A DNA stretch of 64,000 nt from Curvularia clavata. Lineage: Eukaryota. A model generated the notes under the pieces. The model had not been told where the DNA came from. It saw nothing but the letters and a program-made list of their open reading frames with translations, and did no database searches. The position numbers were made by a program, and so were the translations under genes. The stretch lies in NCBI GenBank assembly GCA_023920165.1, contig CP089279.1, forward strand, positions 2,914,001-2,978,000. Reading direction: 5' to 3'. Below are positions 24,262 to 36,752 of the stretch, piece after piece. Numbering within the stretch: position 1 is the first letter of the stretch; each line of letters begins with the position of its first letter.

Positions 24262-26206
24262 TCAATTCGAAAACGGCACCTTTTTATACTTTTTTGTTTG
24301 CTCTGGGAAAGGTGCAGATGGTACGTCAACGTACTCTGGCTCGATATACCAGGAACGGTCGGCACCAGTCTCGTCGTTCTGCGTCATGCCATTCCCTAGC
24401 CAACTGAGACGATTATGCTCTGGATCTTCATTTGCGTATTTCCAATTAAAGTCTTCCCACCTTGGTGCGCGCATAGTCTCAATTGCATGCAAAGTACTGC
24501 CAGGCCAGAGCCCTATAATACGGTCATTCTTTCGATACCAAGATTTGCAGTCATCAAGATAGACCGTCCGCTGAAAATAAGCATTGATGTGGCGTATCCA
24601 GTCACTCATTGCACGGCCTGATAACTCCATAGCTCCAATGTCCTCCTTTTGTAGTTTCCGGACACATTTGATGATATAATCGCCTTGAGCTTCGATGATC
24701 TTGGTTAGACTCCCAGATCCAACAGCAGAATTTGCCCCTAGCATAAGGAAAATATTGGGAAACCCATCGACTGTCATGCCTAAGTAGGCTTCCGGATAGT
24801 CTTGATATCGGTCCTGGAGACTGAGGCCTTGAGAACCAATGACTGGGTAGAGTGGAGCTCCTCCAGCATCAAATCCAGTAGCACAGATAAGCACATCAAG
24901 CTCAATCTCGCTTCCATCTGCCAAAATAACTCCAGAGCGATTAATCTTAGAGATTGGAGTCATAATAGGTCGTACATTATCTTCGGTCAAAGCCTCTAAG
25001 AAACCAGGGCCGGGAGTCAGGCGTCGACAAAGTGGCGCAAAGCTTGGGATCAGGAAGTCCGCAAGTTCTGGTCGCTTAGCAAGTCGAGCTCTCATGAGCG
25101 TAGTAAACTCTTTGCGGGCCGCTTCCGAAACCGGAGAGCCCTTGAGTGAGATTGGATGTGCAGCGTTAAGGTCGTCTTCAATGGCTTTGCGGAAATGATG
25201 ATACGTCTGATCGTCGACCAAGAATTTCTCCCGAACTTGTGGTTTGACTGCTTGCATGTAAGTTTAGTCCGGTTAGGGGCATAAAAGGGCTAACCGCGGC
25301 ACAACGTACTCTCACTATCTCGAAGACCCAACTTTGCTGCTGAGGAGTCCCCGAATGGTGTTGAAATCCAGGTCTTACTCCTGATGAAGCAACTCAGCTT
25401 AGTCCCAGGTAGTTTTTGTAGCTGGGGGATGATCTGAATACCGCTGCTTCCAGCCCCAATGACACCAATACGTTTGTTAGAGTAATCATACCTGTCACGC
25501 GTTCAGATTGGGTCGAGAGACAATTCAAACATGGTAAAGAATACTCACGTCTCATCCCAATGGCCCGAATGGACGATCTTCCCCGCAAAATCCCATAGTC
25601 CGTCAATCTTGGGCCAGAGAGTTCGAATGAAAGCACCACGCGCCCCAACAACGACATCAGCTTCGCCAAACAAAGTTTTTCCTGTGACAAGATTCTTCAC
25701 ATCAACCCTCCTGATGCTCGAAATCAGCTCGCGAATGACATGCAAATTCGGATACGTCACTGACCACTTTAGACGATGGGCATCCCAGTGCAAACCATAG
25801 ACTTCATGCTTGAGCTTAATGAATCGATCTGCTGAGTACTTGTCTGAAACTCCACTCAAATATTCTCGAATTTGCTCAGAGGTGACATAGAACTTTGACC
25901 ACTTGGGATTCGGCTCAAAAGTGTAGACATATGAGTGTGCTAGTAAGATTAGAATGAGCAGGGATTATGTTCATCCTAATGTAGTTTGTCAGAAGACTTA
26001 CATGGTATATCACAACCACAGCCAGGGTAACGATTCGTCCACCACGTTCCTCCGACTCCTTCGTTTTGTTCATATGTTACTAAATCGACGTTGCGCAGCC
26101 ACTCTGGAATACGAATACTCATATATATACCCGAAAAGCCAGCTCCGATTACAATAACTCTCATTCGACGAAGGTTGTCGACACACGCTTCTTTGATCGA
26201 AGTCAT
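24262..26206 (-). CDS. Baeyer-Villiger / flavin-containing monooxygenase (FAD, NADPH); about 4 introns
   Basis: GAGFSG, GGTWWTNRYPGCGCDIP, type I BVMO fingerprint FAGKIVHSGHW, second Rossmann GAGSSG, DVLICATGFD; introns (e.g. 25940-26001) splice in frame. Confidence 0.93.
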
Positions 26207-26641
26207 TTTTAGAGTTATGAAAGCTTTGTCGATACAGCTGCCTGGCTGAGGCTTATTCGAAGAAGTTGGTTGATGGCAGAGTTGGAACTGCTATACTGAT
26301 TCGTTGTCACGAAATTTATAGGGAATGGCCTTTATAGACAGTGTTAGACAGGGTGTTCCTTGTTTGTTCATGATAGTGTTGCATTGACTGAACTGCCCCA
26401 CGCACGACCCATCTACATTCAATCTGCTCGCTAGTAAATTAGACATTTGGGAGACCTCGGGAGTGTAGGATCACTATCCCGAGGCATGGTATGTTTGCAT
26501 GCACATTGTTTCTGGAACCGCTGACTTACCGATGTTTTTTGATACAGTCACTTTTCTTCTAGACTGATAATTATTGCCAGTCCATTCTCATGCCTTAGTT
26601 GTGGACCCTGGCTGCACGCAGTGTCCTGACGTGAGGTCACC

Positions 26642-26692
26642 GCTAGGCCCTACCGAGGCCCTACCGAGGCTATGCCGAGGCCCTGCCCGAAA
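26642..26692. promoter_or_regulatory. Tandem CCGAGG array (11-bp period) in the BVMO/hydrolase bidirectional promoter
   Basis: CCGAGG at 26653, 26664 and 26675 with degenerate flanking units; extra sites at 26455 (CCTCGG) and 26479. Matches the FarA/FarB core. Confidence 0.65.
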
Positions 26693-26909
26693 ATTATGTT
26701 TAGTCTCCAGTATCGCAATAATATTCCTGGGGCTACACAAAGTGCCGTAGTGTCTAACGTAATCCGCTTCTAAACGGATTCATTTTCTTCTCCTATAAAA
26801 TCATGTTAAGTTGTTATTGAGCAATGTTTTTATTACTCTTTGTCGCTACAGACTTTGACTCTTTCATATATTTTGCCTACCCAGACCAGAACTTATTTTT
26901 CTTGTCATA

Positions 26910-27851
26910 ATGGCCAGCATGCACGACGTTGATATTCCAACCTACGATGGCTTGAAACTCAAAGGCACGCTCTATAGCGTTGGAGCCAAGAAACCACTTA
27001 TTATCCTAACCAGTGGTGTGAGTATCGATGGACTATGCCATCTGCCTGAGTTCCAAGATTAACCAATGTCAACATAGTTCTCTGGTACTCGGGATCACTT
27101 CTTGCCCGACTTCGCTGCACGCTTCAACGCTGCTGGCTATGGGGCCTTAGCATACGACAACAGATGCTGGGGAGACAGCGAGGGCTTGCCTCGTAGTGAA
27201 GTCGACCCTATGCTTCAAACGCGCGACTATATCGACGTCTTCAATTACGCTGCAGCTCACCCTGACGTCGACCCGTCCAAGATTGTTTATTGGGGGTCCA
27301 GCATGTCTGGTGGAAATGCCATAGGTGCAGCTGTCATGAACAGCAGCATCGCTGGTGTTATAGTGCAAGTTCCTTTTGTGTCAGGCGAAGTTGTCACTCG
27401 ACTACCTGGACACCCGGCGGAATTCCTCACTGCCAATCGTCACCAAGGGTCAGAGATTCGAGTCCCGGTCTTTCCGAGCTCTGCTGAAGAGGTCTTAAAT
27501 GGGAGCTGTAAAGCTGTATTGAAGGATGCTGGCGCAATACCCTTTATGGAAGAGACAACCAAGCGTGGTATGAGCTATGCGGAGTCCTGCACGCTGCAAA
27601 GTCTCACAAATATTGCCCTCCACGAGCCAAGAGCGTACATCCACCGAATCTCCCCAACACCATTTCTGATGGTTGTTGGAGATCGAGATATTACGATCCC
27701 GACACACTTGCAACTTGAAGCTTTTGAGAAGGCATTGCAGCCAAAGACTCTGAAAATCATAAGGGGGGCCGGTCATTTCGAGCCATATTACGGCGAAAGC
27801 TTTGAGGAGAATATTGCCGCCCAGCTGGAATTCCTAAAGAGTATTCTATAG
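26910..27851 (+). CDS. Alpha/beta-fold serine hydrolase (Af380/AidA-like esterase or acyltransferase); intron 27018-27077
   Basis: 'YDNRCWGDSEG.PR.EVDP', nucleophile elbow WGSSMSGG, 'VGDRD' (Asp), 'AGHFEPY' (His). Confidence 0.88.
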
Positions 27852-34705: not shown

Positions 34706-35306
34706 AGATGGATTATGTAGATGTATGGCGATAACACTGTGCACTTTCAATGGCTATCTAAGCGGTTTTCCTCTCGAGCGTTTTCAACCAGCTGCTGCGG
34801 TTGACTGCTGGTCTTTATGACGTAGCTAGTTTTTGGTAAATACCATACATTGGTGCGTTGTTAGTTACTTTGCTCTTTTGGACTGTCTTCGTGTTGGCTT
34901 CTACCCGTTGATAAGAACGAAGCCTTATCCCTTCTATCCGAGCACCATAATGCCCCAACCAGCAATACCAGGGGACAAGTTGCTGTTCTACTTGGGATCA
35001 TTTCGTTACTAACCGACCATCTGCTGCTAACATTTACTATGTAAACTTAGACAGGATGCAAGATGTGACAATTAGCATTGCTTAACAGAAATACGTAATC
35101 GCCTAGAACCAGGCGTTGGGTCTGTTCATCAATAACAGCTTGATTGCTCTTTGCTTCAACGCCTATAAGCGGGCATACCAAACTAGAATGGTTAAGCTTC
35201 TATAACACTTCATACAACATAAACCACAAGGTAGAGATTTCGATTCCTAGAATGATACCTTCAATTCACATATTTTGTTGCTCATGATACGGTAGGAGAT
35301 ACCACC

Positions 35307-36388
35307 TCATGTGGACGCATGGCCGGAGGCATTGATCAAAATGAGCGTGACCGTATCTCGCAATGATTCCTGAAGCCAGCCCGGCATTCCTCGCATCAAC
35401 GAAGTCCAACCTAAGCTCGATGGCACAATAATTTGCGCCCCAAAGCCAGAAAGGACCTGTTTCGCAATCGCACTAGCCACATCCTCAGCTGTAACAGGTG
35501 TATCCTTCAACTTCCCTCCCTCTACAAGGTTTGCTGTCATGGGCGTTACAACCCAAGTGGGATGTACAACACTATGAAACGTAAGCAGGAATTTGCACAC
35601 GACGAAACACAAGAGACTGACCTAGTTCGAACACGGGGAGCCTTATATAGGTGTCTTAGCTCCTGGCCCAGGCCTTCGTGGAAAGCGAGTAAGCCAGACT
35701 TGGTGGCTCCGTAGTCCACATTCGTCGCTTGTGTTGCAAAAGAAGCCTGACTTGCGACGTTGACAATGTGACCATGGTTGTGCTTCACCATACTGGGGAG
35801 GAAATGCTGGGTAAGGAGTATGGGAGCGATGATATTCAGATTGAAGATGGCCCGTAGCTTAGCTTCTGGTATTTCCAACACGGGTAGTGTATTTGACAAC
35901 CCTGCATTGTTGATGAGAACGGTCGGGTTACCATGGTCAACTCTGATACGATCGGCGACTGATGATATGGCTTCAGAATCGGTGAGGTCGACCTGGTAGA
36001 AGTACGTATTCGCAACTATATAGAGTCAGAGCTTATTGTCTTTGGATCGGAGCAATGCAATATGGTATGTAATGTAGGAATGGCCACACAAGAGGGACTC
36101 ACACAACTTATTATGAGGTGGGCTTCGATCCAAGATCAAGACCTTAATACCCTTTCCAGCAAACTCAGAAACCACGGCAGCTCCAATTCCACTGCTTCCT
36201 CCAGTAACAACCACAATCTCGCGGCTCCAACTCCATGAAGGGTCACGAACGTTATTATTGACTTTTCTCTTGGTGTACCAAGCGCTCCAGTGTTGCAGCG
36301 ACTTCAAGCCAAGTAAAACCCCAGCGCCGATCTGAACTTTGGGATTTTTGGCCAAGTCAATGGTCTTGGAAAAGATTTGATGCTCCAT
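35307..36388 (-). CDS. Short-chain dehydrogenase/reductase (membrane-anchored, retinol-DH/17beta-HSD11-like); introns 36016-36102 and 35572-35621
   Basis: TGGSSGIG, NNAG, 'HGHIVNVAS', YGATK (YxxxK). Confidence 0.9.
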
Positions 36389-36650
36389 AATTAGCAACAA
36401 CGTTCCTTCGTACTGACTCTGATACTTGATAAGGAGGAATGGGTAGATGTAAAAGGGTGGTGATGAGTTTCAATCAATTGTAAGTGACATATATAATGTA
36501 AAATCAGATCTTTTATAAATACTTGTCTGGGAGCAATTGACTGCTCGAAGCTACCTCGAGACACAACAAGTTTGGTTGCGAGATGAGGTATCTGCCTTGC
36601 CGCTTTGGTTCTGTCAGAAAAACGACTAGCTATATGAGGCAAACATCCAA

Positions 36651-36752
36651 CCGAGGTAGGCAACTACAATTACATAATTTGATCGGAACAATCAGAGCGA
36701 AAGGATAGCTCAAGAGGCTGCCGAGGCGTTACCGAGGGTCTGCCGACCGAGG
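36651..36752. promoter_or_regulatory. CCGAGG cluster upstream of the SDR
   Basis: CCGAGG at 36651, 36721, 36732 and 36747, plus CCGACC at 36743 (11-bp steps 36721-36732-36743). Confidence 0.6.

Follow-up and report, generated by a model that had tools for sequence, protein, structure and literature searches.

Gene content of the locus

The window, a stretch of 64,000 nucleotides of Curvularia clavata contig CP089279.1, holds five contiguous real genes. On the minus strand, a predicted type I Baeyer-Villiger monooxygenase (BVMO; 24262..26206) encodes 569 amino acids in an intact gene with four introns. It is followed on the plus strand by an alpha/beta serine hydrolase (26910..27851; 293 amino acids, one intron), by a Zn2Cys6 + Fungal_trans transcription factor (TF; 28961..31709; 792 amino acids, six introns), assigned by Pfam and gene model, and by an MFS transporter (32453..34705; 536 codons). 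A classical SDR (35307..36388, minus strand; 314 amino acids, two introns), defined by its gene model, completes the set. The original prediction had placed five contiguous genes at these coordinates, but had missed that only four of them are intact, because the MFS frame contains an in-frame stop and a non-canonical splice donor.

The stop lies at codon 485 of 536 (34547-34549), ahead of a hydrophobic helix at residues 496-514, so that the frame does not stay open through the last membrane helices; four full-length homologues (78-83% identical) read through this position. The non-canonical donor belongs to intron 4 (32964), and a contig from the probable RNA run X16 spans 32789-33052 unspliced with the same letters. 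The transporter is probably a pseudogene in the C. clavata copy of the module, which may therefore be decaying. No MFS gene was found within 10 kb of the module in the metagenome contig L004.

Spliced contigs from four probable RNA runs, which show transcripts but cannot rank genes by expression, back all six TF introns, three of the four BVMO introns and five of the ten MFS introns among the joints listed; none of these joints falls in the SDR or the hydrolase. Spliced TF contigs are present in all four runs, and the three BVMO introns are spliced in X12. What we take to be the canonical peroxisomal SKL-type C-terminus is absent from all four intact proteins. Searches of the ESM Atlas returned generic family names only, and the viral contigs searched gave no match. 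The literature searched, with most subscription papers and unseen supplements (possibly holding induction data) outside its coverage, contained no paper on this module.

Flanking regions

Both flanks of the module carry RIP-like dinucleotide indices. The right flank (37001..38500) is AT-rich and contains a dispersed repeat (~37581-37961) with 47 matched pieces, in line with the RIPped element predicted at this border. The corresponding element on the left (22501..24000) is less sure, since just two other places in the genome match it, and weakly. Matches to the Starship captain domain DUF3435, counted as at least those detected, lie on C3, C7 and C8 only, with none on C6, and Starship cargo was rejected on this ground.

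No PKS, NRPS or terpene-synthase Pfam domain was detected in the long ORFs of the window, of 20 kb to its left and of 38 kb to its right, where the contig ends; the scan took in long ORFs over ~120 kb rather than every exon. At this scope, the locus does not contain the backbone gene that marks a secondary-metabolite biosynthetic cluster, and the view of a self-contained module with no such gene among its five members is supported.

Promoter sites and the regulator

The divergent promoter between BVMO and hydrolase contains five CCGAGG/CCTCGG sites (26455..26680), of which three make up an 11-bp tandem array (26645-26684). Two CCTCGG sites (32119..32164) lie upstream of MFS and four CCGAGG sites (36651..36752), three in tandem, upstream of SDR; the 1109 bp before the TF have none. 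The hexamer is present upstream of every non-TF gene, as had been predicted. A third CCGAGG triple array with a 14-bp unit (38040..38085) lies outside the dispersed repeat, ~1.7 kb upstream of SDR and 0.8 kb upstream of a SnoaL-like gene (SnoaL Pfam match); its membership of the module is uncertain.

De novo, CCGAGG ranks first among hexamers in the three enzyme/transporter promoters, with 11 sites against 0.5 expected; collapsing the tandem copies leaves 7 against 0.76 (Poisson p 1.5e-5). All three triple-tandem CCGAGG arrays found in the 32-Mb genome are at the module locus, and the reversed-pattern control gave one. In the L004 promoters CCGAGG is again the first-ranked hexamer, with a collapsed count of 4 against 1.89 expected that is not significant (p 0.12), and three related contigs carry 3, 5 and 7 tandem copies. 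A common CCGAGG promoter code of the module genes is supported.

Automatic annotation labels the TF homologues 'cutinase transcription factor 1 beta'. The zinc finger, kept across the clade of the TF, is identical at 20 of 30 residues to that of a host gene on contig C1, which we take to be FarB-like from the FarB zinc finger as we know it. In the TF tree, which held no named FarB sequence, this host gene branches outside the clade of cluster TFs. Judged by the tree, the cluster TF is a distant FarB-like paralogue and not the FarB-type gene of the genome. Homologues P0130-P0147 were considered as true FarB orthologues and rejected, as their best host match is the cluster TF and not the C1 gene. 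The related zinc finger and the CCTCGG sites in the presumed targets place the TF among Far/CTF1-like paralogues, with predicted binding to these sites. Of the proposed dedicated CTF1beta/FarB-like regulator, the FarB-like part is retained; 'dedicated' is not supported in view of the separate host gene.

Because the zinc finger of this host gene is similar, the CCGAGG sites could be read by a global factor. FarA and FarB act through CCTCGG, the established Far site, on fatty-acid genes, according to the accessible parts of PMC5068947 and PMC4117967. The linked TF would then be a helper or passenger in a catabolic module read mainly by global FarA/FarB. The extra A. flavus paralogue FarC, which the same portion of PMC5068947 describes as having no fatty-acid phenotype, fits such a role, though FarC is without a zinc finger. 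However, the module TF is intact and spliced, retains its zinc finger, and forms with the hydrolase the most constant pair among all copies seen. Moreover, known Far targets mostly have one or two sites and no tandem arrays (11 of 12 with sites in Table 1, within the accessible part of PMC5068947). We regard global control as quite unlikely, and prefer the linked factor as activator.

Enzymes of the module

The BVMO displays GxGxxG/A Rossmann motifs at residues 21 and 193, FxGxxxHxxxW[PD] at 168 and [AG]GxWxxxx[FY]P[GM]xxxD at 52, which we take to be the type I BVMO signatures. By these motifs the protein is a type I BVMO, predicted to insert oxygen with NADPH. The names of its homologues indicate a StcW/MoxY-like subfamily, and the homologue P0150 matches steroid, cyclohexanone (CHMO) and phenylacetone (PAMO) monooxygenases in PDB. 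The SDR contains TGxxxGIG, NNAG and YxxxK, and its nearest solved relatives are 17-beta-HSD11/13. Asp86, the acidic residue ending the second strand as in NAD+-using oxidising SDRs, suggests NAD+ as cofactor of this classical, 17-beta-HSD11/13-like enzyme.

The hydrolase has the triad Ser111-Asp240-His269, invariant in all 16 aligned homologues. Structural and PDB results were obtained with the homologue P0307, 90% identical to the C. clavata protein, which matches 7D78 (E 7e-39) and 6LZH (E 4e-30). Its model (pLDDT 91.9) compares to DcsB and GrgF with TM 0.81-0.85 at 28-29% identity. By modelled fold and Ser/Cys-Asp-His triad, the hydrolase is a member of the DcsB/GrgF structural family. The fold is common to DcsB (PDB 7D78/7D79) and GrgF (PDB 6LZH) with the nucleophile-Asp-His triad in register, whereas the nucleophile is Cys in GrgF and Ser in the C. 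clavata enzyme. DcsB and GrgF partner a PKS. In contrast, the C. clavata hydrolase has no linked PKS in the long ORFs scanned, and none was seen in L004.

Since these closest solved relatives are polyketide-pathway thioesterases, a tailoring role remains open. The hydrolase could act as a DcsB/GrgF-like thioesterase or lactone former, with BVMO and SDR decorating the polyketide of an unlinked synthase, on the model of the AdhA, MoxY and EstA set that works in aflatoxin synthesis. Some hydrolase homologues are annotated as 'polyketide transferase af380', BVMO homologues take their names from StcW, and Bref-TH-type partners release PKS products (PMC4147253, accessible part). Against this, no backbone domain appears in the ~120 kb of scanned long ORFs, in the L004 ORFs examined or in the Fusarium verticillioides genes FVEG_03387-03405 (PMC10512309 Table 1); copies of the module turn up in different classes with no backbone gene seen, and the fold family also includes general esterases (7QJM). 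We consider tailoring unlikely and favor a catabolic module.

Among bacterial relatives of the hydrolase, none of 80 loci has a BVMO within 4 kb, and five of 80 have an SDR similar to that of the module. The surrounding ORFs (93 of the 97 picked scanned) encode a mixed set of families, for instance AraC regulators, enoyl-CoA hydratases, SDRs and further hydrolases, with no substrate hint.

Co-occurrence and probable transfer

Outside contigs L004-L008, adjacency was read as consecutive ids, not DNA. In Xylaria, in two Leotiomycetes and in many Fusarium, the ids of TF and hydrolase follow each other directly, and BVMO or MFS adjoins in several. TF-hydrolase-BVMO trios occur in F. oxysporum f. 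sp. vasinfectum, F. avenaceum and F. flagelliforme. Both vasinfectum and Clarireedia show MFS-TF-hydrolase, and Cylindrodendrum shows hydrolase-SDR. Contig L004 brings together TF, SDR, hydrolase and BVMO in a different order from C. clavata. SDR linkage is known from two lineages only. The check for synteny returned pairs, trios and one set of four in Sordariomycetes, Leotiomycetes and the metagenome, so that the refuting condition set originally, a lack of conserved co-occurrence, does not hold; all five genes were seen together in no other genome. By id order and contigs, it is parts of the module that co-occur in unrelated genomes, as expected of a fungal catabolic cluster; a fixed five-gene unit is not supported, with MFS broken here and missing near the L004 copy, and BVMO lineage varying. 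In F. verticillioides, the related TF gene FVEG_03391 is surrounded by a cutinase, a carotenoid-oxygenase-like gene and genes for aromatic catabolism, and neither it nor its direct neighbours are induced by benzoxazolinone (PMC10512309 Table 1).

Between fungal classes, identity is 72-90% for hydrolase, TF and MFS, whereas a vertically inherited host control BVMO shares 82% with Alternaria and about 48-53% with other classes. This difference points to horizontal transfer of the module between fungi. In the hydrolase tree, the C. clavata, Xylaria and Leotiomycete copies are nested inside a Fusarium clade with support 1.0. Codon GC3 was dropped as transfer evidence, as the module genes (0.44-0.52) are not separable from their neighbours (0.41-0.71).

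The module BVMO of C. clavata is 82% identical to a Didymella enzyme and 49% to the Fusarium module BVMO, and groups with Didymella/Phaeosphaeriaceae (Pleosporales) with good support; because the tree outgroup is a rough sequence from L004, only this grouping and the pairwise identities are used. The BVMO was therefore probably swapped in from a different lineage. Across copies, BVMO adjoins hydrolase despite differing lineages (identity 49% and 34%).

A foreign BVMO, a broken MFS, RIP-like flanks and a position 66 kb from the contig end would also suit a decaying subtelomeric mosaic, a former working module that is partly dead and in which the BVMO is an unrelated arrival. Yet four genes remain intact and keep their full catalytic sets. 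The BVMO is transcribed and spliced and has a CCGAGG promoter in common with the hydrolase, and, going by id order, it flanks the hydrolase on the side that the BVMO takes in Fusarium. Such a mosaic appears very unlikely.

Proposed function

On balance, we lean toward a small module that is mobile between fungi by horizontal transfer and degrades or detoxifies a lipophilic ketone or secondary alcohol, the substrate being predicted. The compound would enter via MFS where this is intact, and otherwise by diffusion. The NAD+-type SDR would oxidize the alcohol to a ketone, BVMO would insert oxygen (NADPH/O2) to give an ester or lactone, and the serine hydrolase would release a (hydroxy) acid and an alcohol usable by central lipid metabolism. 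The linked FarB-like factor would activate the enzyme genes through the CCGAGG sites, often in tandem. We infer the reaction order, the catabolic direction, the identity of the site-binding factor and the transfer; the enzyme motifs, with the acidic SDR residue, agree with the SDR-BVMO-hydrolase logic put forward originally.

If the module is catabolic, our guess falls, at slightly better than even chance, on an aliphatic or alicyclic lipid-like ketone (methyl ketone, terpenoid or oxylipin-like). A steroid-like compound, another microbe's polyketide or macrolactone, and an aryl ketone are each guessed to be unlikely, to the same degree. Very long wax ketones are less likely, and the earlier proposal of a cuticular-wax substrate is not upheld: nothing points to wax, and the module is without a subterminal hydroxylase or a secreted enzyme.

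A more far-reaching reading, which we hold to be doubtful, is that a sub-family of FarB-derived regulators was captured in a mobile cassette that spreads between three fungal classes, with TF and hydrolase fixed, BVMO exchanged for substrate range and expression tuned by tandem CCGAGG copy number. If so, the cassette would serve to detoxify a specific defence ketone of plant or microbial origin and could be retargeted, and a PKS-partner hydrolase family would gain a catabolic role.

Should the catabolic module be right, several plant-associated fungi would possess a compact alcohol-ketone-lactone breakdown route, and its substrate would name a compound those fungi must cope with. A lipid-regulator paralogue would have turned cluster-specific, and an enzyme would have been swapped in place within a transferred cluster. 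Without the substrate the advance is moderate, because the chemistry is textbook and small mobile fungal detoxification clusters are already known.

Comparison with known systems

The bacterial operons chnA/chnB/chnC of Acinetobacter, cpn of Comamonas, mekAB/mekR of Pseudomonas and cdd of Rhodococcus serve the use of secondary alcohols and ketones. Like the module, they combine an alcohol dehydrogenase, a type I BVMO, an ester/lactone hydrolase and a linked regulator. Unlike them, the module has fungal genes with introns, a Zn2Cys6 regulator and a DcsB/GrgF-family hydrolase, whose bacterial relatives are not beside BVMOs, and is without downstream hydroxy-acid dehydrogenases.

The Grosmannia clavigera BVMOs CMQ_6956 and CMQ_7007 reportedly lie in a larger terpene-induced cluster. 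They are implicated in monoterpene breakdown (PMC8120277, accessible part) and are likened to the module by description, not by sequence comparison, as fungal BVMOs for a lipophilic plant compound. The C. clavata module, in contrast, is without a terpene-activating P450 or epoxide hydrolase.

The FarA/FarB (CTF1alpha/CTF1beta) regulon resembles the module in its CCTCGG/CCGAGG sites and related zinc finger. The module TF differs in its physical linkage to the presumed targets, in its patchy distribution and mobility, and in having its sites in tandem arrays. The enzymes of the Fusarium clusters FDB1 and FDB2 are a metallo-beta-lactamase and NAT1, their inducer is known, and FVEG_03391, related to the module TF, does not respond to it. 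Like the module, these benzoxazolinone-detoxifying clusters are small and TF-containing and, as is probable for the module too, horizontally transferred (accessible parts of PMC10512309 and PMC8120277).

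Genes of the Module and Their Setting

The window is fungal DNA on contig C6 of an assembly of 32.4 Mb in 8 contigs, and 66 kb separate the module from the end of the contig. For four of the five contiguous genes originally claimed, the exon models are without internal stops: the BVMO (26206-24262, minus strand, 569 aa), the alpha/beta hydrolase (26910-27851, plus, 293 aa), the Zn2Cys6 factor (TF; 28961-31709, plus, 792 aa) and the SDR (36388-35307, minus, 314 aa). In contigs of four runs presumed to be RNA, introns are spliced out with canonical ends (6 of 6 pooled for the TF, 3/4 for the BVMO, 5/10 for the MFS). 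The MFS gene (32453-34705, plus) is broken by a stop at codon 485 of 536 and a non-canonical donor at intron 4, across which one contig reads unspliced with no differing base. Four full-length Fusarium proteins match its product at 78-83% identity, and the copy here is probably a pseudogene. The module as a whole could be read as a decaying mosaic, in which this broken gene stands beside four intact ones; we consider this very improbable.

At position 31200, all four runs carry another base that alters TF codon 624, either a strain difference or an assembly error. In two runs, X12 and X16, contigs running on from the 3' end of the TF show a spliced minus-strand intron (31801-31874); the transcript is probably antisense, arising from the MFS promoter region.

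RIP-like indices are found in both module flanks. The predicted boundary of RIPped elements is further supported on the right by a dispersed repeat, while the left flank is repeated elsewhere only weakly. Neither 36 long ORFs from the rest of the window nor 29 from 58 kb of flanking DNA yielded a backbone domain, which extends to these long ORFs the lack of a PKS, NRPS or terpene backbone gene noted for the five genes. A role as the tailoring satellite of an unlinked synthase we regard as possible but unlikely.

Several neighboring features deserve mention. Immediately left of the module lies a second Zn2Cys6 gene (20863-22332, plus; transcript to about 23447), whose contigs extend into the RIP-like flank and whose coding region holds five CCGAGG/CCTCGG sites; L004, a metagenome locus from another fungus, also has a Fungal_trans_2 factor left of its module TF. 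In three runs, a chimeric contig joint arises from an 18-bp stretch common to the upstream regions of the BVMO (26377-26394) and this left factor (about 20464-20481). P450 and MBOAT-type acyltransferase genes stand head to head at 13369-19343, with no backbone gene nearby and, beyond the pair, what may be the remnant of a regulator, for which Pfam gives no hit. At 40566-46328 (minus), an ORF of 1920 aa contains four pectinesterase matches, a family rarely so long. Another backbone-less group near the contig end (host pieces L114 8335 to L116 7525; G000:C6 about 2,986,000-3,005,500) comprises two SDRs, an enoyl-CoA hydratase, an NmrA-like protein, a Zn2Cys6 factor, an MFS, an S15 peptidase-like hydrolase and a P450.

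CCGAGG Sites and the Regulator

CCGAGG occurs 41 times in the window versus 20.4 in shuffles. As predicted, the sites lie upstream of the non-TF genes: their three promoters (2088 bp) hold 11, and the 1109 bp ahead of the TF hold none. In these promoters CCGAGG ranks first among hexamers de novo, and with tandem copies collapsed there are seven sites, where other host DNA (118 kb) would predict 0.76 (p 1.5e-5). A genome-wide pattern search found the triple tandem three times (control 1): one array lies in the promoter of BVMO and hydrolase, another in that of the SDR and the third, at 38046, in the right flank. Double tandems occur often (52 vs 37 in the control), so only the triple arrays are special.

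In L004, CCGAGG is again top-ranked; after collapsing of tandem copies, 4 sites versus 1.89 expected are not significant. The array ahead of the BVMO, in 14-bp units, has 3 copies in L004 (11433-11461), 5 in L005 (2181-2237) and 7 in L008 (1220-1304), metagenome loci with a mutual identity of 93-99%. This pattern suggests that the BVMO-side array is a promoter tandem repeat built from putative factor-binding sites. A small SnoaL-like gene (38883-39383, plus), the start of which resembles a signal peptide, has the third triple array (38040-38085, 14-bp unit) 0.8 kb ahead of it; the array may mark a sixth regulon member or be a remote SDR enhancer.

A separate host gene on contig C1, which we take to be FarB-like, shares 20 of 30 zinc finger residues with the cluster TF and 25-34% of the remainder, and branches outside the cluster-TF clade. 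The TF homologues are named CTF1beta by automatic annotation. FarA and FarB use CCTCGG on fatty-acid genes, according to the available portions of two reports (PMC5068947, PMC4117967). Given this use and the related zinc finger, the cluster TF is a paralogue that could plausibly read CCTCGG/CCGAGG. The CTF1beta/FarB-like character of the regulator is thus retained, but not the word "dedicated", since either the cluster TF or the C1 factor could read the sites. Control of the sites by a global Far factor, a role that the C1 gene could fill, nevertheless appears rather improbable to us.

Occurrence in Other Fungi and Origin

The metagenome returned eight loci, five of them close relatives (56-60%) and four of these from one lineage. 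In L004 the TF, SDR, hydrolase and BVMO occur together, but an MFS match is lacking within 10 kb; L005, L006 and L008 are shorter stretches with the arrangement of L004. For named genomes, adjacency was proxied by consecutive locus tags or accessions, in a sample of three protein searches and 30 hand-picked clusters (at most 15 members each) that is not a census. Among the matches listed, TF and hydrolase have successive ids in Xylaria bambusicola, Rhexocercosporidium, Clarireedia jacksonii, F. oxysporum f. sp. vasinfectum, F. flagelliforme, F. avenaceum, F. mangiferae, F. gaditjirri and F. proliferatum. In F. culmorum and two others a single gene model merges the two genes, and in F. sarcochroum, F. 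xylarioides and Dactylonectria they lie three ids apart. By ids among these same matches, the hydrolase is followed by the BVMO in vasinfectum (FOTG_17535-17537), F. avenaceum (FAVG1_08656-08658), F. flagelliforme (FIE12Z_6936-6938), F. acuminatum and one F. oxysporum; the BVMO is two ids off the hydrolase in F. langsethiae, two off the TF in F. tricinctum and three off the MFS in F. torulosum. The matches listed also place the MFS ahead of the TF in vasinfectum and Clarireedia; together with the placing of the BVMO, this is the order of the window. The SDR adjoins the hydrolase in Cylindrodendrum (G7Z17_g900/g901) and in L004/L006. All five genes together were found in no other genome among the metagenome loci and, by ids, the named-genome matches listed. 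A second, more distant TF-hydrolase pair (P0012/P0120 clade; FFUJ_06736, FVEG_03391) occurs in the F. fujikuroi complex, presumably close to the bikaverin cluster, at a distance of a few genes judging by locus tags.

The host was taken as Pleosporales because the hydrolase is identical over 293 aa to a public protein annotated Curvularia and another host BVMO, serving as control, shares 82% identity with Alternaria over its longest exon, compared with about 48-53% for Sordariomycetes and Leotiomycetes. The module hydrolase shares 90% identity with its Xylaria homologue and 85% with those of two Leotiomycetes and F. oxysporum; the corresponding TF values are 79% and 72%. In the hydrolase tree (FastTree, 45 sequences), the window, Xylaria and Leotiomycete copies fall inside a Fusarium clade with support 1.0. 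Horizontal transfer would be the simplest reading of the cross-class similarity of hydrolase, TF and MFS; no DUF3435 captain was found on C6.

The window BVMO shares 82% identity with a Didymella protein and 76% with one from Phaeosphaeriaceae, but 47-49% with the Fusarium module BVMO and 34% with its L004 counterpart; the latter has its best match in the Fusarium enzyme (57-63%). The window BVMO therefore looks swapped in place; alternatively, Didymella may have the same module. The BVMO homologue search covered proteins of at least 526 aa.

Proposed Mechanism and Comparison with Known Systems

The BVMO contains both Rossmann motifs and both type I fingerprints, following the known patterns of such enzymes. 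Its 76% homologue scored about equally well against steroid, cyclohexanone and phenylacetone monooxygenases, and hence no substrate was assigned. The hydrolase triad Ser111-Asp240-His269 is invariant in 16/16 homologues, and the nearest structures (via the 90% homologue) are GrgF, the thioesterase DcsB and a Chloroflexus hydrolase. For the SDR, the closest match is 17-beta-HSD11/13, and its Asp86 aligns with the Asp of BphB and sorbitol dehydrogenase, a residue that marks NAD+ use and favors oxidation.

SDR-BVMO-hydrolase chemistry is textbook. In the mechanism we favor as the probable one, the substrate would be a lipophilic secondary alcohol or ketone, which the three enzymes would turn into an acid plus an alcohol, or a hydroxy acid, under control of the linked TF. 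The original prediction had considered cuticular wax; given an MFS in a module with neither a subterminal hydroxylase nor a secreted enzyme, a smaller compound seems to fit better.

Several observations count against this catabolic reading: none of 80 bacterial hydrolase relatives has a BVMO beside it, and the F. verticillioides TF FVEG_03391, 44% identical to the cluster TF, has different neighbors and, in the accessible part of one study, does not respond to benzoxazolinone. In that study benzoxazolinone does induce FVEG_03387, four ids away, whose Pfam label is that of the window BVMO's hit, a likeness by label alone (PMC10512309). FVEG_03391/03392 appear only as network neighbors in the available text of another (PMC5974142).

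The module is real and apparently undescribed so far: the literature covered, including the locus tags of five orthologous loci and few of the subscription papers, gave no account of it. The catabolic mechanism, as deduced from sequence, is plausible. In its working, the module presumably resembles bacterial chn/mek-type operons. Among fungal systems, we group it with the small mobile detoxification clusters (FDB1/FDB2) and the Grosmannia BVMOs, as far as these are described in the accessible part of the source (PMC8120277).
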